Shown: one piece after another, positions 3,543-63,839 of the stretch
How positions within the stretch are numbered: position 1 is the stretch's first letter
How the letters are laid out: every line of letters starts with the position of its first letter
Source of the DNA: Candidatus Zymogenus saltonus
GTDB taxonomy: Bacteria; Desulfobacterota; Zymogenia; Zymogenales; Zymogenaceae
Assembly (NCBI GenBank): GCA_016929395.1
Contig: JAFGIX010000069.1
Span: 4,986 to 68,985, forward strand
Direction of reading: 5' to 3'
DNA: 64,000 nucleotides
The notes under the pieces: generated by a model
The model's database searches: none
What the model saw: only the letters and a program-made list of their open reading frames with translations
What the model was told of the DNA's origin: nothing
Made by a program: the position numbers and the translations under genes

Positions 3543-3818
3543 TGTCAACGCAATGTATATACGGCGCATCTCACCACAGGCTGAAGGCGTCTCCTTAAAC
3601 ATCAAATAGCTCCAAATCCCTTCATATCCCGCATACTTTAATCAAAATCGGGCGGAGACCTCCCGAAAATCCGTTCCCCTAAAGACTTCCCATTTGGCGA
3701 TAAGGGTGGTAAAATAATCTGCAAAGAGGATTAATTTACCAAAAAATCGCTAAACTTAAGAACCATATCGAAAAAAATCTGTCTTATCTCTAAAACCAAC
3801 GAAGTGTGGGAGGTAAAC

Positions 3819-12362: not shown

Positions 12363-13142
12363 ATGAAGGAATTTTTTGAGACATTGGGAAAGTGGTTCAT
12401 AAAGGCCATGCTCTACCTCGAGGGAACTACAAGGCTCACCTTGGAGGCGGGGAAGGTGCTCTTGACTCCCCCCTTGAATCTCCGCTCGGCCGTCGACCAG
12501 ATCGAATATATAGGGATAAAGTCGATGCTGATCGCCCTCATAACGGCGCTCTTTACGGGGGCGGTAATGGCGCTGCAGATGGCCTTTGCGCTTAAGAGGT
12601 TCGGGGCGGCCGATTTTGCCGCAAACGTCCTGGCCGTGTCGCTGGTCAGGGAGCTGGGTCCCGTCCTCACGGGGCTTTTAGTGGGAGGAAGGGTGGGCGC
12701 CGGGATCACCGCGGAGGTGGGCTCCATGCAGGTGACCGAGCAGATAGACGCGATAAAGGCGCTGGGGGCCGATCCGGTAAGGGAGCTCGTGGTCCCCAAG
12801 ACCTTGGCCTGCATGATAGTCCTTCCCATCCTTACGGTATACGCCGATATCGTGGGAATTCTCTCCGGGATGGTCGTTACCGTAATAGAGCTGGGGGTGG
12901 AGCCGGTCAAGTATCTTGATCAGGTCGTCAATGTGCTGACGATAAGCGACTTTATCGGCGGGCTTGGGAAATCCTTCTTCTTCGGAATAATAATAGGGAT
13001 CGTCGGGTGCTACCGCGGCTTCACAACCACCGGCGGGACCGTGGGAGTCGGAGTTGCCACGACATCTTCGGTCGTAACGATCTCCCTGTCGATACTTGTG
13101 GCGGACTTCTTTCTAACGAAATTATTTATGCTCCTGTTTTAG
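12363..13142 (+). CDS. mlaE: MlaE-family ABC transporter permease
   Basis: Characteristic MlaE TM protein (LVRELGPVLTGLLVGGRVGAGITAEVGSMQVTEQIDA). Confidence 0.9.
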   Translation: MKEFFETLGKWFIKAMLYLEGTTRLTLEAGKVLLTPPLNLRSAVDQIEYIGIKSMLIALITALFTGAVMALQMAFALKRFGAADFAANVLAVSLVRELGPVLTGLLVGGRVGAGITAEVGSMQVTEQIDAIKALGADPVRELVVPKTLACMIVLPILTVYADIVGILSGMVVTVIELGVEPVKYLDQVVNVLTISDFIGGLGKSFFFGIIIGIVGCYRGFTTTGGTVGVGVATTSSVVTISLSILVADFFLTKLFMLLF

Positions 13143-13152
13143 CGGAGAAGAA

Positions 13153-13893
13153 ATGTCGTTTATAGTCTACAGAGGAATAGAGAAGGCGTTCGATGAGAAG
13201 GTTATATACCGGGGGCTCGACCTCTCCATCAACAGAGGGGAAACGATAACCATAATCGGCGGCAGCGGATCGGGCAAGAGCGTGCTGCTCAAGATGATGA
13301 TAGGCCTGATAATGCCGGACAGGGGGGAGATAATTGTCGACAAGACGAACATCGTCGAACTCTCAAAGGAGGAGCTCGTAAAGGTGCGGAGCAGGATAGG
13401 GATGCTATTTCAGGGGGGCGCTCTCTTCGATTCGATAAACGTCGGGGAGAACGTTGCCTACGGCCTAAAGATGCACACGGAGATGTCGGATAAGAAGATA
13501 GAAAAGAAGGTCTCCCGCTGTCTTGAAATGGTGGGGCTTTCCGGAATCGAGGGGATGATGCCGGTAGACCTGTCGGGGGGGATGAAAAAGAGGGTGGCCT
13601 TGGCCCGCGCCATCGCCTACGACCCGGAGATCATCCTCTACGACGAGCCCACGACGGGGCTCGACCCGACAAATGCAAACAGGATCAACAACCTGATAAT
13701 AGAGATGCAAAAACTGCTCAAGGTGACGTCTGTTGTGGTAACCCACGATATGAACTCGGCCTTTTCCGTCTCCGACAGGATGGCCATGCTCTACAGGGGA
13801 AAGATAGAGGTCGTGGGGACGACAAATGAAATCAAAAAGTCGAAAGAACCGCTGGTCAACGACTTTATTCGTGGAAATATTGGAGAGCTCTAA
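13153..13893 (+). CDS. mlaF: MlaF-type ABC transporter ATP-binding protein
   Basis: Walker A GGSGSGKS and ABC signature LSGGMKKRVALARA. Confidence 0.9.
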   Translation: MSFIVYRGIEKAFDEKVIYRGLDLSINRGETITIIGGSGSGKSVLLKMMIGLIMPDRGEIIVDKTNIVELSKEELVKVRSRIGMLFQGGALFDSINVGENVAYGLKMHTEMSDKKIEKKVSRCLEMVGLSGIEGMMPVDLSGGMKKRVALARAIAYDPEIILYDEPTTGLDPTNANRINNLIIEMQKLLKVTSVVVTHDMNSAFSVSDRMAMLYRGKIEVVGTTNEIKKSKEPLVNDFIRGNIGEL

Positions 13894-13905
13894 AGGAGGC
13901 TTCTT

Positions 13906-14769
13906 ATGGCAAAGAAGACTATACAGGAAATAAGGGTGGGTCTGTTTATCTTCGTGGGCCTTGCCCTCGCGTTCATCTTGGTTTTTTCCATCGGGAGCGA
14001 AAAACACCTCTTCGAGGAACAATACACCCTTTACGCCCACTTCAAGGACGTGGGGGGGCTGAGGGCCGGGGCCCCGGTGAGGCTCGCCGGGGTGGATGTG
14101 GGCACCGTTTCGGTGGTGTCGTTTCCGACAGATCTCGAAAAGAAACTGATAGACGTTGAGCTAAAGATAAATACGGACGTGAAAAAGAGGATAAGGGCCG
14201 ACAGCGTGGCCAGCATAAAGACGAAGGGGGTTCTGGGGGATAAATACATCGCTGTTACCATGGGGAGTCCCGCTGAAAAGATGTTGACGAACGGCGAGCG
14301 TCTTGAGTCGGAAGAATCGGTGGAGCTCTTCAACTATCTGGAGCGCGCGGACAAGATCGTAGACAACACGCTTTCCATCACCGAGTCCCTGGACACGTTT
14401 CTCAAACCGATCAAGGACAAGAAATCGGGTGAAAACGTCGCCAGAATACTCAAATCGGCCGATGAAATCGTAACCGAGGTAAAGGAAGGGGAGGGATCGC
14501 TCCACACCATCATATACGGGGGGAAGGAAGAGACGGCCGATACCATAAGCAACCTCGATGCCTCCCTGGTAAGCCTAAGGAGCATACTGGAGAAGGTGGA
14601 CAAGGGTGAGGGGACTCTCGGGGCGCTTGTAAATGACCCGACCGCCTACGAGGATCTGAAGATACTCCTGGGGGGGGCGAACCGGAGCAAGGTGATCAAG
14701 TCCGTTGTGAATTACAGCATTCAGAAGAAGAAAAGGGAAATAGAAAGGGAGGAGAAAAAGGATAAATGA
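13906..14769 (+). CDS. mlaD: MlaD/MCE-domain protein
   Basis: N-terminal TM followed by an MCE domain (RAGAPVRLAGVDVGTV). Confidence 0.85.
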   Translation: MAKKTIQEIRVGLFIFVGLALAFILVFSIGSEKHLFEEQYTLYAHFKDVGGLRAGAPVRLAGVDVGTVSVVSFPTDLEKKLIDVELKINTDVKKRIRADSVASIKTKGVLGDKYIAVTMGSPAEKMLTNGERLESEESVELFNYLERADKIVDNTLSITESLDTFLKPIKDKKSGENVARILKSADEIVTEVKEGEGSLHTIIYGGKEETADTISNLDASLVSLRSILEKVDKGEGTLGALVNDPTAYEDLKILLGGANRSKVIKSVVNYSIQKKKREIEREEKKDK

Positions 14770-44050: not shown

Positions 44051-45916
44051 ATGAGCAATTACGTTGTTGATGAGCGGGACCAAAAGTTTGTCTTGTACGA
44101 ACAGTTGGACATAGAGAAGCTCACGGGGTATCAGAGATACTCGGATTTTTCAAAGGATGTCTTCGATATGGTAATCGAAGAGGCCCGCAAGTTTACCGTG
44201 GATATCTTGGAGCCCACGGTCGAGGAGGGGGAGAAAGAGGGGTGCAGCCTCAAGGACGGCGTGGTATCCGTCCCGAAGTGCTTCCACGAGCCTTACAAGA
44301 CATTCTGCGAGGGGGGCTGGCTGAGCATGGTTCACAGTCCCGAGGTCGGCGGACAGGGAATGCCCCAGATTTTGGGGACGGCGGCCAGGGAATATTTTAA
44401 CGTCAACTTTTCATTCTTGGCCTACGTGGGGTTGACCGAGGGGGCCGCCCACCTGATTCATAATTTCGGCACCGAGGAGCAGAAAAACAAGTATTTGTAC
44501 AAGATGTTCTCCGGCGAGTGGGGTGGATCGATGGTCCTTACGGAGCCTGGGGCCGGAACGGACGTGGGGTCGCTTAAGACCTCCGCCAAGAAGAACCCTG
44601 ACGGCACCTACTCGATCACCGGGACGAAGATGTTCATAACCGGAGCCGATCAGGACCTGGTTCCGAACATCGTACACCCGGTTCTCGCCAGGGTCGAGGG
44701 TGCGCCCGCCGGAACCAAGGGTATATCAATCTTCCTCGTTCCCAAGTACCTCGTGAAAGACGACGGCAGCCTGGGCGAGAGGAACGACTGGAACGTCTCA
44801 AACATCGAGAAGAAGATGGGGATCAAGGCCTCGGCCACCTGCGTTGTGAACTTCGGCGACAACGGCAAGTGCTACGCAGAGATCCTGGGCGAAGAGGGCC
44901 AGGGGATGAAGATCATGTTCGTCCTCATGAACGAGGCGAGGATAGGTGTCGGAATACAGGGGCTTACCGCCGCCTCCAGGGCCTATCTCTACTCGGTCAA
45001 GTACGCAAAGGAGAGGCTCCAGGGGTCCGACCTCGCAAATTTCAGGAACCCGGACGCCCCGAGGGTCCCCATCATCAACCACCCGGACGTGAGAAGGATG
45101 CTCCTCTGGATGAAGTCCCACACAGAGGCGTTGAGGTCGCTGGTCTACTACACCTCCTGGTGCTCCGATATGGCGGTAGTGGCGGAGAGTGAAGAGGAGA
45201 GGGAGAAGTGGCACGGGATTCTCGAGGTCTTGACGCCGATCCTCAAGGCGTACGGGTCAGACACCGGCTTCAAGGTGGCAGACCAGGGGATCATGGTTCA
45301 CGGGGGATACGGCTACACCTCCGATTACCCGGTGGAGCAGATACTGAGGGACGTGAAGATCGCCGCCATCTACGAGGGGACGAACGGCATCCAGTCCCTC
45401 GACCTCGTGGGGAGGAAGCTGGGCCAGAAGAAGGGGCAGAACTTCATGAGCCTAATGGGCGAGATATACGGCTTTATATCCAGACAGGAGAAAAATGAGA
45501 AGATAAAAGACCTCGTAGCCAAGCTGAAGGAGGGGGTCGATACCCTGGGCGAAATGGCCGGCTTCTTTGCGAAATGCGGCAAAGAGGGCAAGTTCCTCGT
45601 GCCGGTCGGTAACGCCTACCCGTTTCTGAACCTCATGGCCACGGTTCTTTCCGCCTGGATGCTCGTCTGGCAGGCCTCCATCGCCTCGGAGAAGCTCGAC
45701 GCGATGGCGAAAGAGAAGGGGGCCGATCCCTCCGACTGGGGGAAGTGGGCCGAGTTCATAAAGGACAACGCCGACGCCGCTTACTACTCCGGAAAGGTGG
45801 CCGCCGCCAAATATTACGTCAACAACGTCCTTCCGGGGATAGACTCCATCGCCAAGGCGATCAAGACGGAAGACCTCTCGATCATGGAGATCGCGGAGGA
45901 GTCGTTCGCCTTTTAG
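44051..45916 (+). CDS. long-form acyl-CoA dehydrogenase
   Basis: 621 aa with ACAD N-terminal, middle (TEPGAGTD) and C-terminal domains plus a C-terminal extension. Confidence 0.85.
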   Translation: MSNYVVDERDQKFVLYEQLDIEKLTGYQRYSDFSKDVFDMVIEEARKFTVDILEPTVEEGEKEGCSLKDGVVSVPKCFHEPYKTFCEGGWLSMVHSPEVGGQGMPQILGTAAREYFNVNFSFLAYVGLTEGAAHLIHNFGTEEQKNKYLYKMFSGEWGGSMVLTEPGAGTDVGSLKTSAKKNPDGTYSITGTKMFITGADQDLVPNIVHPVLARVEGAPAGTKGISIFLVPKYLVKDDGSLGERNDWNVSNIEKKMGIKASATCVVNFGDNGKCYAEILGEEGQGMKIMFVLMNEARIGVGIQGLTAASRAYLYSVKYAKERLQGSDLANFRNPDAPRVPIINHPDVRRMLLWMKSHTEALRSLVYYTSWCSDMAVVAESEEEREKWHGILEVLTPILKAYGSDTGFKVADQGIMVHGGYGYTSDYPVEQILRDVKIAAIYEGTNGIQSLDLVGRKLGQKKGQNFMSLMGEIYGFISRQEKNEKIKDLVAKLKEGVDTLGEMAGFFAKCGKEGKFLVPVGNAYPFLNLMATVLSAWMLVWQASIASEKLDAMAKEKGADPSDWGKWAEFIKDNADAAYYSGKVAAAKYYVNNVLPGIDSIAKAIKTEDLSIMEIAEESFAF

Positions 45917-51618: not shown

Positions 51619-52458
51619 TCAAAACTTCGGGGAAAAGTAGGTCTCGATTCTAACCGGCTCTCCCAGCCTTCCCCTTATGTCTGTGTCCTTCCAGTAAAGC
51701 TCAGCCATCTTCACACCCTCCCTCATATGCCCCTCGATCTCGACTCGTATCTCCTCAATCTTCTCGTCGTCAGCGTTTTTCGGGACGTAGAATGGTCCAG
51801 TAAAAATATATACGATCTTGGAAAGTGGCGCCGGCATCCACATCCCGTCCCAGGTGGGAAGGGTGAAGTGTGGCCTTGCCGCGGCGCTCATAACCAAAAT
51901 CGGAGATCCCGACTCCCTGGCGAGGTGAACGAGACCCTTCTTCAAAACGAGGGCGGGCCCGGAGGGGCCGTCGACCGTAAGCCCGGCGTGGAAACCCTCG
52001 TCTTTGATGAGCTTGATCATGGCGTCGAGGGCCTCCTTGCCCTTCATGTCCTTTATCCTGCCGCCCTTCTTCACCTTTTTTGGTGCGCCCCTGACCGTTA
52101 GTATCCCCACCGATTTCATCGTCCGGGCGCCCACCTCGCCGCTGTCCTTGTGGCTGCTCATTATCACGTGGCGTTTGTGGCTTGCGTACATGAAATAATA
52201 CTGGGCGTATCTGTGCCAGTGGGCATAGATGATCCCCTTCCCTTTTGAGAGAAGCTCATCTTCGAGGGGCTTTCCTATCACGTACACCTTGGAGGACTTG
52301 TAAAAGGAGCCGATTATCAGCATCATTGACGGTATCCCGGTTTTGAACATGAGCCGCCGGGTCGGCTTGAAACGACTGTCGTCATAGGGGCCGAAGTGAA
52401 CCCCGTATTGCTCGGGATTTTTTATGTCCCATGGGAAATCGTTGTTTTTTTTCTTCAT
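51619..52458 (-). CDS. DUF374-like / lysophospholipid-acyltransferase-like protein
   Basis: TVDGPSGP motif. Confidence 0.5.
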   Translation of the reverse strand: MKKKNNDFPWDIKNPEQYGVHFGPYDDSRFKPTRRLMFKTGIPSMMLIIGSFYKSSKVYVIGKPLEDELLSKGKGIIYAHWHRYAQYYFMYASHKRHVIMSSHKDSGEVGARTMKSVGILTVRGAPKKVKKGGRIKDMKGKEALDAMIKLIKDEGFHAGLTVDGPSGPALVLKKGLVHLARESGSPILVMSAAARPHFTLPTWDGMWMPAPLSKIVYIFTGPFYVPKNADDEKIEEIRVEIEGHMREGVKMAELYWKDTDIRGRLGEPVRIETYFSPKF

Positions 52459-52596
52459 ATCAATTTGGGCAATTGTTTTTTACCGTTTAAGACATCATGA
52501 TAACAGAAAAATCGTACCCGTCCAAATAAAACGAGAGGGAGGCTTGAGATGGCGGAAGGATCGCCCACGATGTGTCGGGGAGTTTAAAATCGCCCT

Positions 52597-53399
52597 TTAT
52601 TTCTTCCGTCCCCCGAGGTAGTACTCCCTCACCATGTTGTTTCCCCTCAAGTTTTCGGCCGTGCCCTCGAGCACGATCCTCCCGGTCTCCATGACGTAGC
52701 CGAAATCGGCGACCTCAAGGGCCATCCTGGCGTTTTGCTCGACGATCAGAACGGTCACCCCCTCCCTGTTTATCTCCCTTATTATGCCGAAAATATCCTT
52801 GACCAGCATCGGGGCGAGGCCCAAGGACGGCTCGTCCAGCATCAACAATCTGGGCCTCGACATCAATCCCCTGGCGACGGCGAGCATCTGCTGCTCCCCG
52901 CCGGAGAGGGTCGACGTGATCTGCTTCTTGCGATCCTTCAGTACAGGGAAATATCCGTTTACCCTTTCGAGGTCTTCCTTTATCCCGGCCCTCTCCCTTC
53001 TGATATATGATCCCATCTTGAGGTTTTCCGATACGGTGAGATCGCCGAAGAGCTCGCGCCCCTCGGGGACGCAGGATATCCCCGCCCTGACAATATGCTC
53101 CGGCCTCATGGAGTCTATGGGACGGCCGTCAAAGAGGATCGTCCCTTCATCTCTGCGGCCACGGATCAATCCGGAGATCCTTTTTAAGACGCTGCTCTTT
53201 CCCGCCCCGTTCGCTCCGAGGAGGGCGACCACGCTCCCCTCCTCGACGCTCATGGATAGATCGGAGACGACGGCAGACGCGTCGTAGCGGACCTCCACCC
53301 CCGTCAGCTCAAGAAGGCTTTTGCGGCCCCCTTTTTCGGGCGAGACGCCTTTAGATACGCCTCTCCCTCTTTTTTTCTCTCCCATCTTCAAATCCAGAA

Positions 53400-53403
<4 letters not shown>
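52597..53403 (-). CDS. livF: branched-chain amino-acid ABC transporter ATP-binding protein
   Basis: Walker A GANGAGKS and ABC signature. Confidence 0.9.
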
Positions 53404-54182
<779 letters not shown>

Positions 54183-55151
54183 CTAAACGCCCCTCTTTAT
54201 CCGCGTCGAAAGGAGTCCCTCGGGCCTTATTATCAGAACGACGATGATCACTATGAATGCGAAAGGGGTCTTGTATCCCATGGATATGTAGCTCCCGAAG
54301 AGGTTCTCGGAGACGCCGAGCATCCACCCCCCGATGATGACCCCAGGGAGGCTCCCCAGCCCCCCGAGGACCGCCGCCGAGAAGGCCTTGAGAAACGGAA
54401 ACAGTATAACCGTGTTGTCGAGGTTGAGCTTGGCCGCAGTCAGTATTCCTGCTGTGGCGGCCAAAACCGAGCTTATCCCCCAAGTGACGGCGAAGATGGT
54501 CCTGGTGCCTATCCCCATGAGGCCCGCCGCCTCCCTGTTCTGAAAGGTCGCCCGCATCGCTATCCCCAGCCTCGTGAATCTGAAAAAGAGGTAGAGGACG
54601 ACGATAATGCAGCTGGTTATCCCAAGGATAATCAGATCGAGCTGGTCTATTGGGATTTTTCCCAGCTTAAACAGTTTGAAGTCGCTCAGGGGCGGCGGCA
54701 TGGCGTAGACCTCCGTCCCGAAGAGCCCGATTATGGTGCCGTCCAGTATCTGCCAGAGGCCTATGGTTATGACGATGAGTCCCAGGTGGCTCGGCTCTTT
54801 CGCGGGCCTCAAGAAGACGACCTCGAGGATCACGCCGAAGAAAAAGGCGAAGACGGCCGTAAGGACGGCTATGAGGGCAAACGCTAAGATGGAGAAGTTA
54901 TCCACGTTAAGCCCGCCGAGGATGCCGATACGGCAGGCCCAATCGAAAAGGTGGGCCGATATGGGGCCCGTATATTTTGTCATCATCATGTATATTAAAA
55001 ACGTGGAGAAGAGCCCCATGTTGCCGTGGGCGAAGTTCAGCACATCGTTCGTCTTGTAGATCATGACGACTCCCAAGGCAATCATCCCGTAGAGGCTTCC
55101 GGTGGCGAGCCCCTGGATCGTGAGGTATGCCATGGTCTCCGGGGTATTCAT
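54183..55151 (-). CDS. livH: branched-chain amino-acid ABC transporter permease
   Basis: LivH-type N-terminus (YGMIALGVVMIY...NFAHG). Confidence 0.9.
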   Translation of the reverse strand: MNTPETMAYLTIQGLATGSLYGMIALGVVMIYKTNDVLNFAHGNMGLFSTFLIYMMMTKYTGPISAHLFDWACRIGILGGLNVDNFSILAFALIAVLTAVFAFFFGVILEVVFLRPAKEPSHLGLIVITIGLWQILDGTIIGLFGTEVYAMPPPLSDFKLFKLGKIPIDQLDLIILGITSCIIVVLYLFFRFTRLGIAMRATFQNREAAGLMGIGTRTIFAVTWGISSVLAATAGILTAAKLNLDNTVILFPFLKAFSAAVLGGLGSLPGVIIGGWMLGVSENLFGSYISMGYKTPFAFIVIIVVLIIRPEGLLSTRIKRGV

Positions 55152-56284
55152 CTTACTCTCTTCCCCCTGTATAATCTTCCGCCCTTTATCTTGAGCGCCA
55201 GTTGAGACAGCATCCCGCTCAGTCCTCTCGGCTGAAAGATAACGATGACGATCATTATGGCACCTGAGATGATTGCGCTGGCAAAACTGTACTTCGCAAA
55301 AAGGAGGGGGATGACCGTCAGAAGTCCCGCCCCCAGTATCGAGCCGAAAATTGAGCCGAGCCCTCCCACCACGATCATGGCGATCATGTCGATGTTGATC
55401 ATGATTCCGTACTGGGAAGGCTCGATGAAGTCCATCATGTTCGCGTGGAGGGCGCCGGCGACCCCCACATAAAACGCTGACACGGCAAAGGCCATGGTCC
55501 TGTAGCGGGTGACGTTGATCCCCAGGGCGCCAGACGCCGCCTCGCTATCGCCTACGGCGATAAAGGCCCTACCCACCTTAGATCTCACGATCTTGAGCGC
55601 AAAGAGAATCAACAAGAGCGCGGCCAAAAGTATTATGAAGTAGACCTGATTTTCGCTTGAGAGCTTTTGACTGAAGATCGAGACCTCATCGGTTACCGAG
55701 TGGCCGAAGAGGCTGATGGCGGGGGTGCGAAGCCCGCTCCTTCCCCCCGTTATCGACTCGGTCAGGACGAGGGACTGCTCCACGAATATGCCGAAGCCGA
55801 GGGTCACTATGGCAAGATAGGGACCCTTTGTCCTCAGGGCGATGAATCCGAGCACCAAACCGATGACCGATGCCACGAAACCCGAAAGGATGACGGCGGC
55901 GATAAACGGCGTTTCGATGTTGAAGGGAAGCTTGAGATGGATAAGAGTCATGACCGAAAAATATGCCCCCACCGCCATGAAGCCGGAGTGTCCCAATGAT
56001 ATCTGCCCCGTGTACCCCACGAGGAGGTTCAGCCCCACCGCCACGATGATGTTTATCAGGATGAGGTTTGCGACGTAAACGAAATATTTCCCGGCGAAGA
56101 TCGGGAACATGAGGAGAAGGACTATAAGCAGAATAACGCCGACGGCAGAGCGGACGCTCTTTATAAGCCTGATGTCGTTGTAGTAATCGTGCCTTTTATT
56201 CATGGAATTCACATTGTATGGATGAGCTTCCTCATCTGTATGAAAAGCTAAAAAAACGATTTTAAGAGATTTTTTTTGAGACAA
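55148..56284 (-). CDS. livM: branched-chain amino-acid ABC transporter permease
   Basis: LivM-type motif GYTGQISLGHSGFMAVGAY. Confidence 0.85.
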   Translation of the reverse strand: MSQKKSLKIVFLAFHTDEEAHPYNVNSMNKRHDYYNDIRLIKSVRSAVGVILLIVLLLMFPIFAGKYFVYVANLILINIIVAVGLNLLVGYTGQISLGHSGFMAVGAYFSVMTLIHLKLPFNIETPFIAAVILSGFVASVIGLVLGFIALRTKGPYLAIVTLGFGIFVEQSLVLTESITGGRSGLRTPAISLFGHSVTDEVSIFSQKLSSENQVYFIILLAALLLILFALKIVRSKVGRAFIAVGDSEAASGALGINVTRYRTMAFAVSAFYVGVAGALHANMMDFIEPSQYGIMINIDMIAMIVVGGLGSIFGSILGAGLLTVIPLLFAKYSFASAIISGAIMIVIVIFQPRGLSGMLSQLALKIKGGRLYRGKRVR

Positions 56285-56566: not shown

Positions 56567-58270
56567 ATGGCAAAGAAGAAGACCGAAGCAAAAACATCTA
56601 AGAAGCCGTGGGTGGAGTTTTACCCCGAGGGGGTTCCCGAGACTATCGAGTTTGAAGATACGACGATCGTCGAGGCGATGGAGCGGACGGTGAAGAGGTT
56701 TCCGAACAACCCCTCCGCGTACTTCATGGGCAAGACGATCACGTTCGGGGAGTTCGGGGATATTGTCAAGCGCTTTGCGACCGCAATGGCTGGGATGGGC
56801 GTGAAGAAGGGGAGCAGGGTTGCCACCCTCCTCCCGAATATCCCCCAGATGGCCATCGCCTACTACGGTGCCATGATGGCCGGCGCCACCCTCGTTCTCA
56901 ACAATCCCCTCTACACCGACCACGAGCTTGAGTATCAACTGAACGACTCGGAATCGGAATATCTTGTCACCCTCGACCTGTTGGCGCCCAGGATGATAGC
57001 TTTGAGGCCCAAGACCAAGTTAAAGAAGATAATCGTCTGCCACATAAACGACTACCTTCCCTTTCCGAAAAAACAGCTCTTTCCCCACGTCAAGAAGGCG
57101 ATGTTCAGAAAGATCGAAAAAACCCAGGATGTCTTCGAGTTTTTGGACCTCATAAGGAAGAACAAGCCGAATCCCCCGAAGGTCAAGTTCACCTTCGATG
57201 ATATGGGGACGATCCAGTACACGGGGGGGACGACCGGCGTCTCCAAGGGAGTCGTGTTGAGCCACGGGAACCTTAGCAAAAACGTCCAGCAGATCTCCGC
57301 CTGGTACCCGAGCTTCGTTCAGGGGGAGGAGTCGGCCGTTGCGTGCCTCCCATTCTTCCACTCCTTCGGGATGACGTGCGTTATGAACTTCGGCATATGG
57401 AACGGCTGGGCGGGGGCGTATATCCCCAGGCCGGAGCCCCAGCCGATCCTCGAGGCGATAGACAAGCACAAGCTCTCCTTTCTCCCAGCCGTCCCGACGA
57501 TGTTCATCGGGATGCTCAGGCATCCGGATTTCAACAAGTACGACCTGAGCTCGCTGAAGGGATGCTTCTCCGGCGCCGCCCCCCTGCCCCTGGAGGTCAT
57601 CAAGGAGTTCGAGGAGGCCACCGGCTCCCAGATATGCGAGGGGTACGGGCTTTCGGAGACGACGCCGGTGACCCACATCAATCCCTTCGGCGGAAAGACA
57701 AAGGTTGGAAGCATCGGGCTGCCCGTGCCTAATACCGAGGTCAAGATTGTAGACATCGATACGGGCAAGAAGGAGGTTGCAATCGGAGAGCCGGGGGAGG
57801 TTATTATCAAGGGTCCCCAGGTCACGGAAGGGTATTACAAAAAACCGGAGGAGACGAAAAAGGCGATAAAGGACGGCTGGCTATACACCGGCGACATTGG
57901 GACCATGGACGAGGAGGGTTATTTCTACATCGTGGATCGGAAGAAGGACATGATAATCGCCGGCGGTTACAACATCTACCCCAGAGACATCGACGAGGTC
58001 CTCTTTGAGCATCCGAAGGTGGTGGAGGCCTGCACCATCGGCGTGCCCCACGAATACCGGGGGGAGACCGTCAAGGCCTACGTAGTCCTCAAGGAGGGGG
58101 AGACCGCGACAGAGGAGGAGATGATCGACTACTGCAAGGAGAAGCTCGCCAAATACAAGGTCCCGAAGCTGATCGAGTTTACTGACAGCCTACCCAAGAG
58201 CGCCGTCGGAAAGATATTGAGAAAGGAGCTCAGGGCCATGGAGCTCGAAAAGATAGATAAGAAGAAATAG
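56567..58270 (+). CDS. long-chain fatty acid--CoA ligase (AMP-binding)
   Basis: YTGGTTGVSKGVVLSHGN AMP-binding motif, 567 aa. Confidence 0.9.
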   Translation: MAKKKTEAKTSKKPWVEFYPEGVPETIEFEDTTIVEAMERTVKRFPNNPSAYFMGKTITFGEFGDIVKRFATAMAGMGVKKGSRVATLLPNIPQMAIAYYGAMMAGATLVLNNPLYTDHELEYQLNDSESEYLVTLDLLAPRMIALRPKTKLKKIIVCHINDYLPFPKKQLFPHVKKAMFRKIEKTQDVFEFLDLIRKNKPNPPKVKFTFDDMGTIQYTGGTTGVSKGVVLSHGNLSKNVQQISAWYPSFVQGEESAVACLPFFHSFGMTCVMNFGIWNGWAGAYIPRPEPQPILEAIDKHKLSFLPAVPTMFIGMLRHPDFNKYDLSSLKGCFSGAAPLPLEVIKEFEEATGSQICEGYGLSETTPVTHINPFGGKTKVGSIGLPVPNTEVKIVDIDTGKKEVAIGEPGEVIIKGPQVTEGYYKKPEETKKAIKDGWLYTGDIGTMDEEGYFYIVDRKKDMIIAGGYNIYPRDIDEVLFEHPKVVEACTIGVPHEYRGETVKAYVVLKEGETATEEEMIDYCKEKLAKYKVPKLIEFTDSLPKSAVGKILRKELRAMELEKIDKKK

Positions 58271-58356: not shown

Positions 58357-60246
58357 CTATTCCAACCCCGCCTGGAGGCTGAAGGCTATGGGGATGTCCT
58401 TTAGGATCATCTCCCTTGAGAACGGTCTTTCGAGGCACTTCTCGGCGTAGGCAGTAAGAAATCCGTTTAATCCGCTCAGATGATCGTCCTTTGCCTCTTC
58501 CTTAAGAGCAATTACCTCTTTATATTTCAAGACCGCCTCGTCCCGCTTCCCCATGAGGTCAAGGGCCTGCCCCGAGAGGAGACAGGCCAGGCCCCTCTCG
58601 TTTAGCGTCTGGGGTAGCTCGAGGGAGTCTTGAAGGAGCTTTTCCGCCCCCTCGTAGTCGCCCATGACGATCAGGAGCCTCGCCAGCATCCGGTAGTAGG
58701 CGGGCTCTTCAGTGTCCTGCGCCATGGCCCCCTCCAGCATCGCCAGCGCCTCGCGGATTCTCCTGAAGTCGTCTTCATAGGCAATGTATGCGTCCATGTA
58801 TGAGGAAAATCCGTCCCTCTTGGCGCTGCTCTTCCACCGGTAGCTGGAAAGAATCTTCGGGTAGACCCTTGAGGGCTTTTCCTCGAACTCCGCCCAGAAG
58901 TCGAATCCGATGTATTCGTTTGCGCAGGCGGGCTCTTTCCCCGCCGCGGTCCAGAAGAAGCCGTCCGCCGGCAAAAATATTACCGAGGTCACGTTGTTTG
59001 CGCCGCAGACGGTGTGCCCGAAGCTCCTCTCGGCGTTCAAGATCGGGTCGATGTGGTCGCTCATGAACTCAGCGGCCAGGGCCGGCGTGATCCTCCCGTA
59101 ATTTTCCTCTATCAGCCGGGTGAGCCTCACGTACCTCCCCATCAGGTTCCTCATGACAAGGCTGTATCTCGCCATAAGATCTACTTTTTCAAGCTCTTTA
59201 GTCGTGGCGAAGTTGGTCAGGGCTATGGAGTCTCTCTCCATTTTCCTTATCCCCAAAAGGTCTGGGCTCGATTCAAAGACGACGGCTTCCTTCGTCTTAC
59301 CGTCGGCTACGAGAAACCCGAAGGCGCCGCCCCTTTTGTTCTCCCTCAGGATCTCGGCCGCACCGTCGATGTCCTTTGCCCCCCTCATGATCATGTTCTC
59401 AAATATTGTAAAGGAGACACCAGCGGGGTCTGCCCCGTCGTATCCCATGAAGTGCCCTCCGATCACCATTCCCATCTCGTTCATGGCGGAGTTGCACTTT
59501 ATAAGCCCCGCCGTGGAGACCCTCACGTAGCGATAGCCGTCCTCCGGCTCGCAGAAGAAGATCGTTTGGTTAGGCCCCCAGAGACCCTGTCCCGAATAGT
59601 CGGTGTTTCTCCCGAAGACGAGCTTTCCCCCCGCGGTCGCCCTTCCCGCCGCGGCGAAGCTGGAGCACCCCCCGGCGTCTTTGACGAGCCCGAAGTCGAT
59701 CGCCTTTTTACCGATCACCCCCGGAACCATGGCCATGGAGAGGTCGGAGTAGAAGTTGGCGATAAAGACGTCCCGGTAGTCGAGGCCGGCCCCGTCCGCT
59801 ATCCCCTTTATCTCTTCGAGGTATTCTCCGGGGGTGTTAGCCTCAATCGGAGCAAAGATCTTTATCTCGAGGTACTTCATTAGGAGCCACCTCATCCACG
59901 CCGGCTTCTCGGCGTACTGGACGTTTTTGGAGATCGGATCGGAAAAGAGGGGAACACAACCCTCCCTGATCTCATCGGCCAAGAGTTTTCCATGCTGATA
60001 GCCCATCTCGTAGGGCGTCCCCTTGAGCTTGATTATGTTGTTTCCCCCCTCCCTTCTCAAGGAGGCGTCGCCGAATTTCGAAACGCCGTCCTCATCGGCT
60101 ATTTCAAGCATCTTTAGGGAATCGATTACCTTTGCCTCGGGCATAAAGTTTGATCCATCGCTCACCGAGTTTATCCTGACGAAGTAGAGACAAAAAACCA
60201 CCAGGACAAAAATCAGTGCGAGGATCGTAAACGCTGCCTTTTTCAT
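58357..60246 (-). CDS. C45-family Ntn-hydrolase (acyl-CoA:6-aminopenicillanic acid acyltransferase-like) with an N-terminal TM anchor and C-terminal TPR-like region
   Basis: GGCSSF autoproteolytic/nucleophile Cys motif. N-terminal hydrophobic helix. C-terminal repeat region. Confidence 0.7.
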   Translation of the reverse strand: MKKAAFTILALIFVLVVFCLYFVRINSVSDGSNFMPEAKVIDSLKMLEIADEDGVSKFGDASLRREGGNNIIKLKGTPYEMGYQHGKLLADEIREGCVPLFSDPISKNVQYAEKPAWMRWLLMKYLEIKIFAPIEANTPGEYLEEIKGIADGAGLDYRDVFIANFYSDLSMAMVPGVIGKKAIDFGLVKDAGGCSSFAAAGRATAGGKLVFGRNTDYSGQGLWGPNQTIFFCEPEDGYRYVRVSTAGLIKCNSAMNEMGMVIGGHFMGYDGADPAGVSFTIFENMIMRGAKDIDGAAEILRENKRGGAFGFLVADGKTKEAVVFESSPDLLGIRKMERDSIALTNFATTKELEKVDLMARYSLVMRNLMGRYVRLTRLIEENYGRITPALAAEFMSDHIDPILNAERSFGHTVCGANNVTSVIFLPADGFFWTAAGKEPACANEYIGFDFWAEFEEKPSRVYPKILSSYRWKSSAKRDGFSSYMDAYIAYEDDFRRIREALAMLEGAMAQDTEEPAYYRMLARLLIVMGDYEGAEKLLQDSLELPQTLNERGLACLLSGQALDLMGKRDEAVLKYKEVIALKEEAKDDHLSGLNGFLTAYAEKCLERPFSREMILKDIPIAFSLQAGLE

Positions 60247-60311
60247 AAAAACCTCTTTTTAGTTAAAGTTCTATTTTGATATTCGATCTATTTTAATTGA
60301 AAAAACCGCCC

Positions 60312-61058
60312 TTAAAAATCGTCCCTCACTCCCATATACCGGGCGAGGCCTTCGGCGAGCCTTACGAAAACCTCCACATCGGCGGAGCTCTTGAAAAGGG
60401 GGGTGATCTCCACGATAAGGCCTCCCGGTAAAAACAAGATGTTGTAATAGGTGTGGGGGAGCCGGGCCATGAGGATCGCGACCACGTCGGCGGTGAGGAT
60501 TACGTCAAAGGCATCCTCGCTGTTTACGGCAAAGATTGTGTGGGTCTTGGCGAACTCCGGGAACCGCTCCTCAATATCGAGGGCCTTCTTGCCCCCCGGC
60601 CCGGGAACTATCGATATCGCGAGTAGAAACATCTTTTTTAAAAGATTCCCCTTTACCTCGGAGTGGGAAAAGAGAAAAACGGGCCCCAATATGGGAATCT
60701 CCATAAATACAGTGATGAAATACTTCAGGTTCTCGTCGCTGGCCCCCTTTTTCGAGCCGCTCTCGACCCCCTTGTACCCGCTGTAGAAATAACCCTCCCC
60801 CTCGGACAGCGGAAGCCTGATGATGTCCCCGTACACCCCTCCCGGTGGAACGCTGAGCCTATCCTCCAGCATCTTACCAAAGGCGTTGTCTTCGTCCTTC
60901 TCGGCGACCGAAAGCCCCCTCGACTTGGCGTAAGAGGAGACCGCCCTTTTCAGTCTCCTGACGTTATAAACAATATAGTGAAAGACGGAGTAGAAGACAA
61001 CAACGAGAATTATAACAATGATGATGTTTTCGGTTTTAGACACCGAAAGCCCCTTCAA
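60312..61058 (-). CDS. membrane-anchored hypothetical protein (paralog 1)
   Basis: N-terminal TM. Shares LPLSEGEGYFY and IEERFPEFAK...ILTADV blocks with the next gene. Confidence 0.6.
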   Translation of the reverse strand: MKGLSVSKTENIIIVIILVVVFYSVFHYIVYNVRRLKRAVSSYAKSRGLSVAEKDEDNAFGKMLEDRLSVPPGGVYGDIIRLPLSEGEGYFYSGYKGVESGSKKGASDENLKYFITVFMEIPILGPVFLFSHSEVKGNLLKKMFLLAISIVPGPGGKKALDIEERFPEFAKTHTIFAVNSEDAFDVILTADVVAILMARLPHTYYNILFLPGGLIVEITPLFKSSADVEVFVRLAEGLARYMGVRDDF

Positions 61059-61159
61059 ATTTGTCGATTTGATGTAAAATTAAAGGTACCGTTAAGTGTC
61101 CGTCTAAAGTGCTTCATAAGAGCGAAATCAATAACCTGAAATGCGACGGCTTTATAAGT

Positions 61160-61951
61160 TTAAAATTTACCCATATCGCTTAAGGCCCGGGCGAGGGTTT
61201 CCGACCAAGTGACGTAACGCTCTATCTCCTCTGCGCGCTTCATCTTCGTCTCGATGACTATACCGAATCCCGAAGGGGCAAAGCATACGTTTGCTGGCTT
61301 ATTCCCAGGGTGCGTCATAAGTACCAACATTACGTCGGCCGTGAGTATCGCCCTTTCCGCGCCCTCCACATCCTCGGTGAAGACGTTGTATACCTTGGCA
61401 AAATCGGGGAAGCGCTCCTCTATCTCCATAAGCTCGACGTTTCCCGCCCCAAAGACCTTGTTCAGTACCAAATTGATCACGGCCTTGGCGAGCCTCCCCT
61501 TTAGGGGGATGTGCTGAACCACGAAGGTCCGCTCGGCTATCGGTATATCGGTGAACACGACGATATACTGGCTTTCGGATACCGATGCCGTCTCGGATGA
61601 AGAATCACTCGTCTCCTGGAAACGGGTGTAAAGATAGCCCTCCCCGTTGGAGAGGGGAATTTTGACAATGTCCTCGATATTTCCCATATCCGGAAGACCG
61701 AAGCTCTGTGTGATCCTCGCATTTAGGTCGCCGCTCCGGTCGTCCGGAATGATCGTGAGCCCCCTCGTCTGGGCAAAGGCTATCAACGCCTTCTTCGCCC
61801 TGCCGGTAAAGAGGCCGACCTTGGCCTGTCCCGGATAGAGTGGTTGGGCCTTCATCTTTGCCCGCCTCGATCGATAGATGATAAAGACGAGGACGATGAA
61901 AAAGATGGTGGATGCAACATATCCGGTTATTACTAATGTCATGTCATGCAT
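61160..61951 (-). CDS. membrane-anchored hypothetical protein (paralog 2)
   Basis: N-terminal TM. Carries IPLSNGEGYLY and IEERFPDFAK...ILTADV blocks. Confidence 0.6.
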   Translation of the reverse strand: MHDMTLVITGYVASTIFFIVLVFIIYRSRRAKMKAQPLYPGQAKVGLFTGRAKKALIAFAQTRGLTIIPDDRSGDLNARITQSFGLPDMGNIEDIVKIPLSNGEGYLYTRFQETSDSSSETASVSESQYIVVFTDIPIAERTFVVQHIPLKGRLAKAVINLVLNKVFGAGNVELMEIEERFPDFAKVYNVFTEDVEGAERAILTADVMLVLMTHPGNKPANVCFAPSGFGIVIETKMKRAEEIERYVTWSETLARALSDMGKF

Positions 61952-62071
61952 AATGTGTAACTTGACAAAAAATTTGAACCCTATTTATGGTCATGGTCTT
62001 CGTCAAATCCACGATTTAACATGGATTGTCGGAGTCGCCTCAAACCTCGAATGCCCGTTGCGAAGTTTCCC

Positions 62072-62941
62072 TTACTTCGCCACCTCGGCCCAGGCGTCCT
62101 TGATTACCACGTCCCCCCTGTTGACCGCGGCCTCGAGGCCGACTATTTTGGTATCACCCTTGTCCTCGGTGAGCCAACCCTTGGTGATTACCGTGTCTCC
62201 CGGCAGGACGTTCCTCGAGAATCTAACCTTGAGCTTCTTCAGCTTCGTAGGGTCGCCGCCGCAGGCGTTGTCCACAACCGCCTTCTGGACGAAGGCCATG
62301 GTGCAGAGCCCCTGGAGGATTATGCCGGGAAGCCCCACCTTTACCGCGAAGTCGGGATCGACGTGTATCAGGTTGTGGTCGCCCGAGGGCTCCGCGTAGA
62401 TGTAGGTCTGCCCCAGCTTGACCTTCATCTCTTCCGTGAAGAGGATATTCGGTTCCTCCGCCTTCTCCTCGACGGCCGGCTTTTTCTCCCTCTTGGCATC
62501 CGGCCACCGCTCGAAAAAGCCGATAACCAAACTCATCACGAGATCGCCCGCCTCGTCCACCGAGTCCACCTTTACCTCTAAAAGCTCGCCGGTTCCCTTG
62601 TCGATGACGTCCTTTACGGTCGCCGTGGTCTTGAGCTTCGTCCCTGGGATAAGGGGCTTGGGCCACTCGAAGTACTGCTCCCCGTGGACGACGTACGCCC
62701 AGTTGATCCCGAGGGTCGGCTCCTTCAGCACTTCCATTATCCCCTTGGCCCCGATGTCCTTGCTGACGGCATAGAGGGGAGGGGCCACGGTTCCCCCTTC
62801 TCTCGCCCCGTTGATATAGGCCTCGTTGTAGTCGTTGGTCGCCAGGGCGTAGTAGATCGCCTCCCTGTTTACGACCTCCCCGTCCACCGGCCCGAACGTC
62901 TTTCCGATAAGATCACGATTAATAGCCATTTTAGGCCTCAC
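62072..62941 (-). CDS. MaoC-like (R)-specific enoyl-CoA hydratase / dehydratase with a double hot-dog fold
   Basis: 289 aa. The C-terminal hot-dog carries DHNLIHVDPDFA. The N-terminal half is a second, degenerate hot-dog. Confidence 0.8.
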   Translation of the reverse strand: MRPKMAINRDLIGKTFGPVDGEVVNREAIYYALATNDYNEAYINGAREGGTVAPPLYAVSKDIGAKGIMEVLKEPTLGINWAYVVHGEQYFEWPKPLIPGTKLKTTATVKDVIDKGTGELLEVKVDSVDEAGDLVMSLVIGFFERWPDAKREKKPAVEEKAEEPNILFTEEMKVKLGQTYIYAEPSGDHNLIHVDPDFAVKVGLPGIILQGLCTMAFVQKAVVDNACGGDPTKLKKLKVRFSRNVLPGDTVITKGWLTEDKGDTKIVGLEAAVNRGDVVIKDAWAEVAK

Positions 62942-62989
62942 GAAAAAGGTGTATGAAAAAGAACACTACTTGTTTTCTATTCCCCGTTT

Positions 62990-63185
62990 GACAAGGGGAA
63001 CGATTATTTCGTAATTCCCGACTCGATCGGGGATCAAATATCCTGTCATTCCCAACTCTATTGGTAATCCATTATTCTGTCATTCCCGACTTGATCGGGA
63101 ATCCAGATAGATATTCATCCCTACATACGCAGGGACAGGCTGGATTCCCGCTTCCCAAGGGAATGACATATAATGTTACTCCCTT
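62990..63185. repeat. second cluster of the REP-like hairpin repeat family (TGTCATTCCCGACTTGATCGGGAATCC / GGATTCCCGCTTCCCAAGGGAATGACA)
   Basis: Three units with internal dyads. Same family as 1851-2110. Confidence 0.5.
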
Positions 63186-63362
63186 GTTTTTGCTCCCAAA
63201 TAGATATGGAATCCATTAAAGATGTTAGACAAAAAAATACCAGAAAAAGGGGCGTGTGTCAAGAAAGGGGTGAAACGACTTTTAGTAAAACCGCCGCCGA
63301 AATTGACACCAAAAAGTATCTGTGATACATTTAGTCAATTAAAAAATATCTTGGGGGTCTTT

Positions 63363-63839
63363 ATGAGCGTCAAAACATTATCCGACAAAGCCAATCTCTA
63401 CAAGATTGTCGCGTTTCTCATTCTTGTAGCGGCGGCCCTTGCCCTTGCCACCTGCGGCAAGGAGCCCACCGACGAGGAGAAGATCGAGGCGTTGATCAGG
63501 GACGCAGCGGAGAAGGCGGAGGCCAAGGATATCAGGGGCGTGTTGAAACACGTTTCCGAGTCGTACAAGGACAGGGAAGGGAACGACAGGAACCAGATCA
63601 AGGGGCTATTGTTTGTCTACTTTCAGGGGTACGAAAAAATCGGGATTTTCATTCGGGATATTAAGGTCGAAGTAAAGGGAGACGATGCTATGGCCGTTGT
63701 CAAGCTGGTATTCACCGGTGGCGCCGAGATCATCCCGGAGTCCGGGAGCGGCTACGTCCTCGATCTGAAGCTGAAGCGGGAGGAGGGCGACTGGCGGGTG
63801 GTGCGCGCCGGCTGGACCGAGTCGAAGGTGCTGTTCTAA
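63363..63839 (+). CDS. hypothetical lipoprotein
   Basis: Signal peptide with lipobox LATC (MSVKTLSDKANLYKIVAFLILVAAALALATC). Confidence 0.55.
   Translation: MSVKTLSDKANLYKIVAFLILVAAALALATCGKEPTDEEKIEALIRDAAEKAEAKDIRGVLKHVSESYKDREGNDRNQIKGLLFVYFQGYEKIGIFIRDIKVEVKGDDAMAVVKLVFTGGAEIIPESGSGYVLDLKLKREEGDWRVVRAGWTESKVLF

Follow-up and report, generated by a model that had tools for sequence, protein, structure and literature searches.

A putative envelope lipid-processing cassette pairing a C45-TPR enzyme with predicted TtfA-fold proteins in Candidatus Zymogenus saltonus

A gene cassette of the Candidatus Zymogenus saltonus MAG, combining a putative C45 amidase, one or two proteins of predicted TtfA-like fold, a lipoprotein and usually a MaoC-type hydratase, looks like an undescribed envelope lipid-processing unit, judging from gene order and structural models. 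Within the window analysed here (64,000 nucleotides of this genome), the original prediction had described four co-oriented minus-strand genes and named their products, and both ORFs and HMMs confirmed these identities. The features, with coordinates and lengths of the longest ORFs for the minus-strand genes, are as follows:

63363-63839, plus strand: small lipoprotein, 158 aa from MSVKTL (longest ORF from 63222), divergent to the cluster
62942-63220, no strand assigned: intergenic region between the lipoprotein gene and MaoC, with tandem palindromic units; candidate operator or leader element
62072-62941, minus strand: MaoC double hot-dog hydratase/dehydratase, 289 aa, by Pfam and best solved relative (1s9c)
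61160-61951, minus strand: paralog 1 (P1), 263 aa, an N-terminal TM helix plus a domain of predicted TtfA-like fold
60312-61058, minus strand: paralog 2 (P2), 248 aa, same architecture as P1
58357-60246, minus strand: C45-TPR Ntn cysteine proenzyme, 629 aa, by NCBIfam C45_proenzyme, Pfam AAT and TPR_19
56567-58270, plus strand: FadD-type long-chain fatty-acid--CoA ligase, convergent, by Pfam AMP-binding

MaoC (MAINRD, 62929) and P2 (MSKTEN, 61043, 243 aa) probably start a few codons downstream of their longest-ORF starts, and the annotated length of P1 is 260 aa. Gaps between the cassette genes measure 65-120 bp, and no terminator-like sites were found in the gaps among the four minus-strand genes. 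The divergent NTF2-like lipoprotein gene had been overlooked in the original prediction.

Conservation of the cassette

The order lipoprotein / [MaoC] - P1 - [P2] - C45-TPR recurs in six species-level genome loci and several metagenome contigs, with C45 identity down to 52% and P1 identity down to 38% across the conserved loci. Linkage in other genomes was thus borne out: MaoC, the paralog(s) and C45-TPR stay together while their flanks change. The proposed four-gene unit was not, as the fixed set consists of the divergent lipoprotein, P1 and C45-TPR, with MaoC and P2 variable. MaoC adjoins the cassette in five of the six P-bearing genome loci and is missing in the L008, L009, L011 and L016 lineages; P2 is missing in L005 and L012. 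The lipoprotein gene is the most constant neighbour: every one of the six P-bearing genome loci has it in divergent orientation, as do L001, L003, L008 and L011.

Among the genomes scanned, only one Desulfobacterota clade has the P-bearing cassette. Most C45-TPR orthologs (Spirochaetota, Leptospirales, SAR324, Desulfomonilia and Abyssubacteria) have neither a paralog nor a MaoC neighbour, so the enzyme needs neither in general; most also lack a lipoprotein neighbour, and no recurrent C45-TPR neighbours were found across phyla beyond lineage-specific sets. Other periplasmic Ntn amidases lie near some C45-TPR genes outside this window, namely a penicillin-amidase family member (L012/L013) and a gamma-glutamyltranspeptidase (L017).

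An alternative is that the genes form no functional module: a stand-alone periplasmic C45-TPR, a beta-oxidation MaoC and FadD, and unrelated P membrane proteins would share an order inherited as narrow-clade synteny. The restriction to a single clade, the coming and going of MaoC and P2, the adjacency of FadD only in close relatives, the unrelated neighbours of C45-TPR elsewhere and gaps of a size that leaves room for separate promoters all speak for this explanation. Against it, both flanks are wholly replaced between the window and L012, L018, L022 and L024, but lipoprotein / MaoC - P - C45 keep this order at 52-56% C45 identity, and scans of genome and metagenome collections found P1-type genes (at least 38% identity to P1) only in this cassette. 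We consider mere inherited synteny unlikely, though a serious contender.

The C45 proenzyme, its membrane anchor and its TPR tail

The C45 protein with a GGCSSF motif, membrane anchor and C-terminal repeats was confirmed by HMMs, TM prediction and TPR_19. It scores 168.2 bits against NCBIfam C45_proenzyme (NF040521; cut-off 85) and matches Pfam AAT (PF03417; 1.6e-11, 44.8 bits versus 23.2). The motif reads GGC194SSF, and none of the 33 orthologs departs from C194, taken as the N-terminal nucleophile, or from the presumed catalytic set R213, D216, N345 and R371; we assign these roles from the counterparts in PVA, BSH and IAT. The structural model has an IAT-like alpha-beta-beta-alpha Ntn fold with a pro-region, a disordered linker at residues 180-191 and C194 at the beginning of strand 195-199, and the predicted self-cleavage site is Gly193|Cys194. 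The C-terminal TPR domain (residues ~474-617) appears rigidly docked, as the model's very high overall confidence (pTM 0.91) indicates. PADLOC returned only a generic TPR match, and an anti-phage defence system was rejected.

The N-terminus, MKK and then ~20 hydrophobic residues, carries a TM helix at residues 5-23 of signal-anchor type, and nearly all 33 orthologs have an N-terminus typical of a signal-anchor or signal peptide. The catalytic domain is predicted to face the periplasm, a topology call less clear-cut than that for the P proteins given the roughly neutral flank after the helix. Weak TPR matches are to periplasmic proteins such as PorW/SprE, LpoP and YbgF.

The proenzyme fold resembles that of IAT/AAT (MEROPS C45; PDB 2x1c) at 20% identity, but C45-TPR is bacterial and is extended by a membrane anchor at its N-terminus and by ~150 residues of TPR at its C-terminus. 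Unlike fungal IAT, it also has a predicted location in the periplasm, a compartment that offers no acyl-CoA. This predicted location makes an IAT-like acyl-CoA-dependent acyltransferase reaction unlikely, and amide hydrolysis or transacylation is the more plausible chemistry. The nearest structural relatives after IAT are the Ntn cysteine lipid amidases NAAA and acid ceramidase, which differ in belonging to MEROPS C89 and in being eukaryotic and lysosomal, with no TM anchor and no TPR.

Taken literally, the IAT analogy would instead make C45-TPR a cytoplasmic acyl-CoA-dependent N-acyltransferase that uses enoyl- or 3-hydroxyacyl-CoA from FadD and MaoC to N-acylate an amine, yielding a membrane aminolipid, with P1 and P2 as cytoplasmic scaffolds. 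This is opposed by the signal-anchor or signal-peptide N-termini of the orthologs, by the periplasmic character of the weak TPR matches and by the periplasmic Ntn hydrolase neighbours in other lineages, and we regard it as very improbable.

Two paralogs with a predicted TtfA-like fold

The two middle genes are clear paralogs, as originally described: P1 and P2 share 35% identity over 208 residues (BLASTP, E 2e-41) and the literal motifs PLSNGEGYLY / PLSEGEGYFY and IEERFPDFAK...ILTADV / IEERFPEFAK...ILTADV. A single hydrophobic helix lies at the N-terminus of both (P1 residues 7-25; P2 ~7-25 counted from MSKTEN) and of nearly all family members, and in P1 a domain of ~210 aa follows. The statement that they have no recognised domain also held: neither matched above threshold in Pfam, NCBIfam, PADLOC or PDB sequence profiles, the only signal being sub-threshold DUF3137 (PF11335). 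P1 scores 15.6 bits against this Pfam model (gathering cut-off 26.1), and P2 gives no match at E<=0.1. In 6 of 15 family members the model matches the C-terminal half of the domain below threshold (best E 0.0028), and the distant member P0145 has the best score of the wider family, 21.7 bits (1.9e-4), still below 26.1. No family member thus reaches the DUF3137 gathering threshold; the UniRef label of P2 is 'DUF3137 domain-containing', and the literature searched held nothing functional on DUF3137.

The paralogs form a real, very rare family that lacks sequence-level annotation. Word-indexed searches returned 12 clusters of homologs for P1 and five for P2, an exhaustive profile search 10 representatives, and a metagenome profile scan with P alignment A1 three loci, all already known. 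In a neighbour-joining tree the gene-2 copies fall outside the clade of gene-1 copies and gene order is preserved; by this sequence evidence P1 and P2 stem from an old duplication, with P2 later lost in some lineages. P1 is the constant member of the pair.

TtfA, or trehalose monomycolate transport factor A, is a mycobacterial protein on which Mycobacterium tuberculosis depends for viability, and it acts together with the drug target MmpL3. The predicted fold of P1 and P2 matches this lipid-export accessory factor (PDB 6t84) at a structural-alignment identity of 9-12%, whereas a PDB sequence search with a profile of 15 P-family sequences did not find 6t84 even at E<=10. Structural modelling of the paralogs thus fits the envelope-lipid theme of the original prediction. 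The predicted topology is consistent with this: in 13 of 15 members the N-flank of the TM helix has a charge of at most 0 and the C-flank +2 to +5, which by the positive-inside rule would place the soluble domain in the cytoplasm. In TtfA the TM helix spans residues 2-24, and the fluorescence of mCitrine fused to the C-terminus points to a cytoplasmic location of the domain (PMC6593404).

P1 and P2 share with TtfA (MSMEG_0736 / Rv0383c) a single N-terminal TM helix and the predicted core fold, and their predicted topology is consistent with that of TtfA. They differ in having no detectable sequence similarity to it and no disordered C-terminal tail, and in their host, a Gram-negative-type member of the Desulfobacterota without mycolic acids. 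The P gene is also duplicated and lies beside a C45 enzyme, a neighbour not reported for ttfA. Pfam gave no match to MmpL3-like MMPL/RND transporters among the window genes scanned.

A second alternative assigns P1 and P2 no lipid role. They would be biogenesis chaperones or regulators dedicated to C45-TPR, with a cytoplasmic domain, resembling a type III secretion chaperone or CCDC47, that binds the newly made C45 pre-protein, or the TM helix of this protein, and assists or gates its insertion into the membrane, its export or its autoprocessing; MaoC would travel along as a passenger. We think a dedicated chaperone role unlikely.

Only two columns are invariant across the wider P family, neither of a catalytic-type residue. 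Distant P members exist that have no C45 neighbour. Their gene context is known from P0142, which adjoins lptCAB-like genes on a contig with no C45, MaoC or lipoprotein homolog, a single case that carries no weight; the P0143 and P0145 contigs are too short to inform.

MaoC, the lipoprotein and flanking genes

MaoC matches Pfam MaoC_dehydratas (PF01575; 4.7e-26, 91.2 bits versus 27), FAS1_DH_region (PF13452; 5.9e-17, 62.5 versus 22) and MFE-2_hydrat-2_N (1.1e-12). Among solved structures it comes closest to human MFE-2 hydratase 2 (1s9c; E 2.5e-28 over residues 12-288), and its SGDHNLIHVD aligns to the human SGDWNPLHID with Asp and His retained. By sequence it is a cytoplasmic (R)-specific enoyl-CoA hydratase / 3-hydroxyacyl dehydratase. 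Like MFE-2 hydratase 2, mycobacterial HadAB and HtdX-type enzymes, it is a double hot-dog protein with a non-catalytic N-half and a catalytic C-half; unlike them it stands alone at 285-289 aa, and it falls far under the NCBIfam HadA/HadB equivalog cut-offs (60.6 bits versus 350).

In the lipoprotein a hydrophobic stretch (residues 12-30) leads to a conserved Cys (..LALATC; LTSC, IVSC and VVSC in orthologs). Its HMM matches all lie below cut-off (NCBIfam Rv0361_Cterm, 1.5e-4; SnoaL_4 in orthologs, 4.5e-4 and 8.4e-4), and it is probably a periplasmic NTF2/SnoaL-like protein.

Between the lipoprotein gene and MaoC, repeat and inverted-repeat searches found three tandem ~34 bp units, each with the palindrome ATTCCCGA-N5-TCGGGAAT, and two further TTCCC..GGGAA hairpins. 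The palindrome pattern has six matches across the window, three of them inside 62942-63220. L015 and L001 retain one copy upstream of MaoC, in which CCCGA..TCGGG has become CCCAA..TTGGG, a compensatory change. Rfam gave no structured-RNA match in this region, and the palindromes are candidates for an operator or leader element.

FadD matches Pfam AMP-binding (2.9e-93) and NCBIfam long-chain-fatty-acid--CoA ligase models (to 3e-179, below equivalog cut-offs). Its convergent position, part of the original prediction, holds in the window and in L001-L005 and L015; the linkage does not extend beyond close relatives, as FadD is not adjacent in L012, L018, L022 and L024. FadD and LivHMGF were rejected as core members on this ground, leaving FadD a possible partner outside the core. 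A long acyl-CoA dehydrogenase (44051-45916), described as near the cluster, lies 12 kb away behind ADH-, CheB-, HHH- and ParA-type genes, is absent from related loci and is not conserved with the cluster; this link was discarded.

A possible envelope lipid module

Our tentative reading, one we hold to be quite possible, is a clade-specific inner-membrane envelope module that joins a periplasmic C45 enzyme, TtfA-fold adaptors and a lipoprotein to acyl processing by MaoC and FadD. Beyond the identities of the genes, it draws on one-clade synteny, predicted structures and the positive-inside rule. In its favour are the gene order retained between changing flanks, the old P1/P2 duplication with its fixed order, the TtfA-like architecture, the four genes being free of terminator-like sites in their gaps, the docked TPR domain of the C45 model and the Ntn amidases near C45-TPR genes elsewhere. 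Against it count the negative MmpL/RND result among the scanned window genes, the many C45-TPR orthologs with no P, MaoC or lipoprotein neighbour, the distant P members lacking C45 and the less clear-cut C45 topology. C45-TPR would self-cleave, its TM-anchored alpha chain (1-193) tethering the catalytic beta chain with the docked TPR domain at the periplasmic face, and would act on an amide-linked, lipid-like substrate, either exogenous or from the envelope, by cleaving or transferring its acyl group. P1, joined by P2 in cassettes that have it, would serve as non-enzymatic, TM-anchored adaptors with a cytoplasmic domain, as in TtfA, probably binding through their TM helices to the C45 enzyme or to a membrane transporter and thereby linking the periplasmic reaction with cytoplasmic acyl metabolism. 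The NTF2-like lipoprotein may act as a periplasmic ligand-handling partner. Where present, MaoC, together with FadD in this genome, would process the acyl chain, for example by exchanging (R)-3-hydroxyacyl or enoyl intermediates with the acyl-CoA pool; the absence of MaoC from some cassettes weakens this acyl-CoA link. Gene linkage and the predicted TtfA fold lend partial support to the envelope acyl-transfer or lipid-remodelling idea first put forward; acyl-CoA-dependent transfer became unlikely, and the four-gene unit and the acyl-CoA dehydrogenase link fell away.

If the synteny is merely inherited, the re-annotation still holds: TtfA-like fold proteins, a predicted periplasmic C45 amidase and an R-specific hydratase. 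The analysis also defines a widespread, unstudied class of TM-anchored, probably periplasmic bacterial C45 enzymes with TPR tails, comprising ~100 clusters; the literature searched held no functional report on bacterial C45-TPR proteins and no member with a known substrate. Two 'hypothetical' proteins gain a predicted fold and a testable context, and a TtfA-matching family in an unrelated phylum, fixed beside a defined enzyme, would offer an independent route to the role of this fold. A bolder joint reading, which we judge improbable, is that P1 and P2 are the first TtfA-type factors outside mycolate bacteria and, with C45-TPR and the lipoprotein, form a new trans-inner-membrane machine in Desulfobacterota that couples MaoC/FadD acyl-CoA chemistry to the remodelling or export of an N-acylated envelope lipid. 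If so, the TtfA fold would be ancient and of general use as an adaptor in the handling of membrane lipids rather than a mycobacterial speciality.

A four-gene cluster conserved in one Desulfobacterota clade

The ORF positions bear out the original prediction of four co-oriented minus-strand genes, with a fatty-acid-CoA ligase gene convergent to them:

62072-62941, minus strand: MaoC double hot-dog protein (gene A; Pfam MaoC_dehydratas, 4.7e-26, and FAS1_DH_region, 5.9e-17)
61160-61951, minus strand: P1 (gene B), TM-anchored paralogue of P2
60312-61058, minus strand: P2 (gene C), TM-anchored paralogue of P1
58357-60246, minus strand: C45-TPR (gene D), C45-family Ntn proenzyme (NCBIfam C45_proenzyme, 168 bits against a cut-off of 85)
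56567-58270, convergent to the four genes: FadD, fatty-acid-CoA ligase

Matching records are MBN1574210-12 of the Candidatus Zymogenus saltonus MAG. No terminator-like sites were found in the three intergenic gaps (65-120 bp) between the four genes. The profile matches confirm the predicted MaoC dehydratase and C45 enzyme with a TPR tail, and the two middle genes are paralogous as proposed (35% identity across 208 residues, E 2e-41), both carrying the sequence blocks quoted in that prediction. An acyl-CoA dehydrogenase gene said to be near the cluster in fact lies 12 kb away, with unrelated genes between.

ORFs were called in 96 loci and searched with an HMM of the P family (P1, P2 and homologues) and with the window proteins. 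Among these loci, P genes adjoin C45-TPR in a single Desulfobacterota clade, comprising genome loci L012, L015, L016, L018, L022 and L024 and metagenome contigs L001-L011. A divergent gene for a lipoprotein of 157-163 aa (Lipo; weak NTF2/SnoaL-like matches), missing from the original description, precedes the cassette wherever the locus sequence covers the upstream region.

Gene order in the clade (a slash separates Lipo from the cassette)
Lipo / MaoC-P1-P2-C45: window, L001, L015, L018, L022, L024
Lipo / MaoC-P1-C45: L012
MaoC-P1-C45: L005 (upstream side lost at contig end)
Lipo / P1-P2-C45: L016
Lipo / P1-P2: L011 (contig stops inside P2)
Lipo / P1-C45: L008, L009

The predicted four-gene linkage is kept in part of this clade; MaoC and P2 are missing from some loci. 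Between the window and L012, L018, L022 and L024, identity is 52-56% for C45 and ~38-42% for P1, and the flanks are wholly different on either side. Inherited synteny of genes without functional coupling is a less likely alternative to the module reading set out below.

Among solved structures, MaoC is best matched over its full length by human MFE-2 hydratase 2 (E 2.5e-28), and the Asp/His of the hydratase-2 motif are kept, so MaoC is plausible by sequence as an (R)-specific enoyl-CoA hydratase / 3-hydroxyacyl dehydratase. FadD adjoins the cassette in close relatives only. Just past FadD, at 51619-56284, are genes for two permeases and two ATPases of a LivHMGF-type ABC transporter, with no binding-protein gene seen there, together with a gene of the lysophospholipid-acyltransferase-like DUF374 family; this block also comes after FadD in L001 and L002.

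The Lipo-MaoC intergenic region (62942-63220) contains three tandem ~34-bp units, each with the palindrome ATTCCCGA-N5-TCGGGAAT, and a further two TTCCC..GGGAA hairpins. One palindrome copy upstream of MaoC is kept in L015 and L001, where a compensatory change preserves it. These repeats, for which Rfam gave no match, could be an operator array or leader hairpin. Elsewhere in the window, three large ORFs went unmatched in Pfam at E<=1e-5 (210-1508, 432 aa; 3804-6230, 808 aa; 6172-8274, 700 aa), the latter two overlapping by ~60 bp in different frames. An MlaE-MlaF-MlaD phospholipid-transport operon (12363-14769) lies 45 kb from the cluster, with no linkage implied.

C45-TPR is a predicted periplasmic Ntn hydrolase

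C45-TPR has the site GGC194SSF, TPR matches at residues 495-585, and residues C194, R213, D216, N345 and R371 invariant in a 33-sequence alignment. Its AlphaFold2 model is confident (pLDDT 91.3, pTM 0.91); the sole disordered stretch, residues 180-191, immediately precedes C194, which starts a beta strand, and in the model this is the expected appearance of an Ntn proenzyme linker. In structural comparison, the model scored 38.6 against the Penicillium IAT precursor (332/355 residues aligned), 29.9 against the lipid amidase NAAA and 28.5 against the lipid amidase acid ceramidase.

The N-terminus reads MKK followed by ~20 hydrophobic residues, and almost all orthologues have a signal-anchor; the catalytic domain is therefore predicted to be periplasmic and tethered by its alpha chain after self-cleavage. 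Whereas fungal IAT uses acyl-CoA chemistry, such chemistry would be unlikely in the periplasm, which favours amide hydrolysis or transacylation. An acyl-CoA-dependent cytoplasmic N-acyltransferase pathway is improbable.

Full-length C45-TPR is widespread, with ~100 clusters at >=35% identity across Desulfobacterota, Spirochaetota, Leptospirales, SAR324, Abyssubacteria and others. Its neighbours in other phyla are unrelated and lineage-specific, sometimes including another periplasmic Ntn hydrolase. Penicillin-amidase-family genes lie 4-6 kb downstream of C45-TPR in two delta-proteobacterial loci (L012, 13857-16337; L013, 13832-16226), and a gamma-glutamyltranspeptidase gene is immediately upstream of two tandem C45-TPR paralogues in a Leptospirales MAG (L017, 5571-7454). 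In a Desulfomonilia MAG (L014/L027, 5616-7855), the genes before C45-TPR encode a LemA protein, a TPM_phosphatase-domain protein and a product of 252 aa that Pfam does not match. Small membrane-anchored proteins of another kind thus take the place that P1/P2 have in the window.

P1 and P2 belong to a tiny family with a predicted TtfA-like fold

HMM annotation agreed that the paralogues have no recognised domain: Pfam, NCBIfam and PADLOC gave no match at threshold. The sole profile signal, also sub-threshold, is DUF3137 (6/15 P-family members, best E 0.0028; a distant member reaches 21.7 bits, the cut-off being 26.1). Very few relatives exist: 5.8 billion proteins yielded 12 homologue clusters for P1 and 5 for P2, an exhaustive HMMER profile search through 1.84 billion proteins gave 10 representatives, and JGI metagenomes added three loci, every one known beforehand. 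In a neighbour-joining tree all P1 copies form one clade with the P2 copies outside it, so the duplication is old and some lineages have lost P2 secondarily. The wider family has two invariant columns, neither catalytic-type, which favours a binding or scaffold role over an enzymatic one.

The AlphaFold2 model of P1 (15-sequence alignment, pLDDT 77.7, pTM 0.71) had one Foldseek match at E<=0.001, the mycobacterial TtfA crystal structure 6t84 (E 8.1e-6, probability 1.00, target-normalised TM-score 0.66). The P-family sequence profile did not find 6t84, so the likeness to TtfA is confined to the fold. TtfA is essential, has an N-terminal TM anchor and a cytoplasmic C-terminal domain, and complexes with the RND lipid exporter MmpL3 (PMC6593404); no lipid pocket was seen in its crystal structure, and how it works is not understood (PMC7458404). 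P1 and P2 likewise have one N-terminal TM helix (residues 7-25); its acidic N-flank and the net charge of +2 to +5 past it predict an N-out, C-in topology.

P1 and P2 might instead be chaperones or regulators dedicated to the C45 protein beside which they are encoded; we regard this as unlikely. Distant P-family members occur without C45. One such member, P0142 (profile E 5.9e-23; L096, 3627-6646), is divergent to a lipoprotein gene and to lpt-like genes, namely an LptC-like ORF, an LptA gene with an LptD_N domain, and a gene for an ABC ATPase resembling LptB; the contig, 13 kb long, has no homologue of C45, MaoC or the NTF2-lipoprotein. Being one case, it gives no more than a hint of a context in envelope lipid transport.

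A possible inner-membrane module

The best, though tentative, reading is a clade-specific inner-membrane module. C45-TPR would be its TM-tethered periplasmic enzyme, carrying a TPR platform and acting as a transacylase or an acyl-amidase; P1, or P1 and P2, would be TtfA-fold adaptors facing the cytoplasm, and the NTF2-like lipoprotein would supply a periplasmic part; MaoC and FadD may be optional cytoplasmic acyl-CoA enzymes. The analysis shows the gene identities, folds and synteny; the topology, any complex formation, the substrate class and the direction of acyl flow are deduced. The envelope acyl-transfer or lipid-remodelling module originally proposed is partly supported and refined, its function resting on one-clade synteny and predicted structures. 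No description of this gene combination was found in the literature searched. MaoC and C45-TPR add new members to enzyme families already known. The P family is new and tiny; its fold, though known, is rare, and neither the phylum nor the gene context in which it occurs here was expected. Its modelled TtfA-fold link is a real, testable lead.
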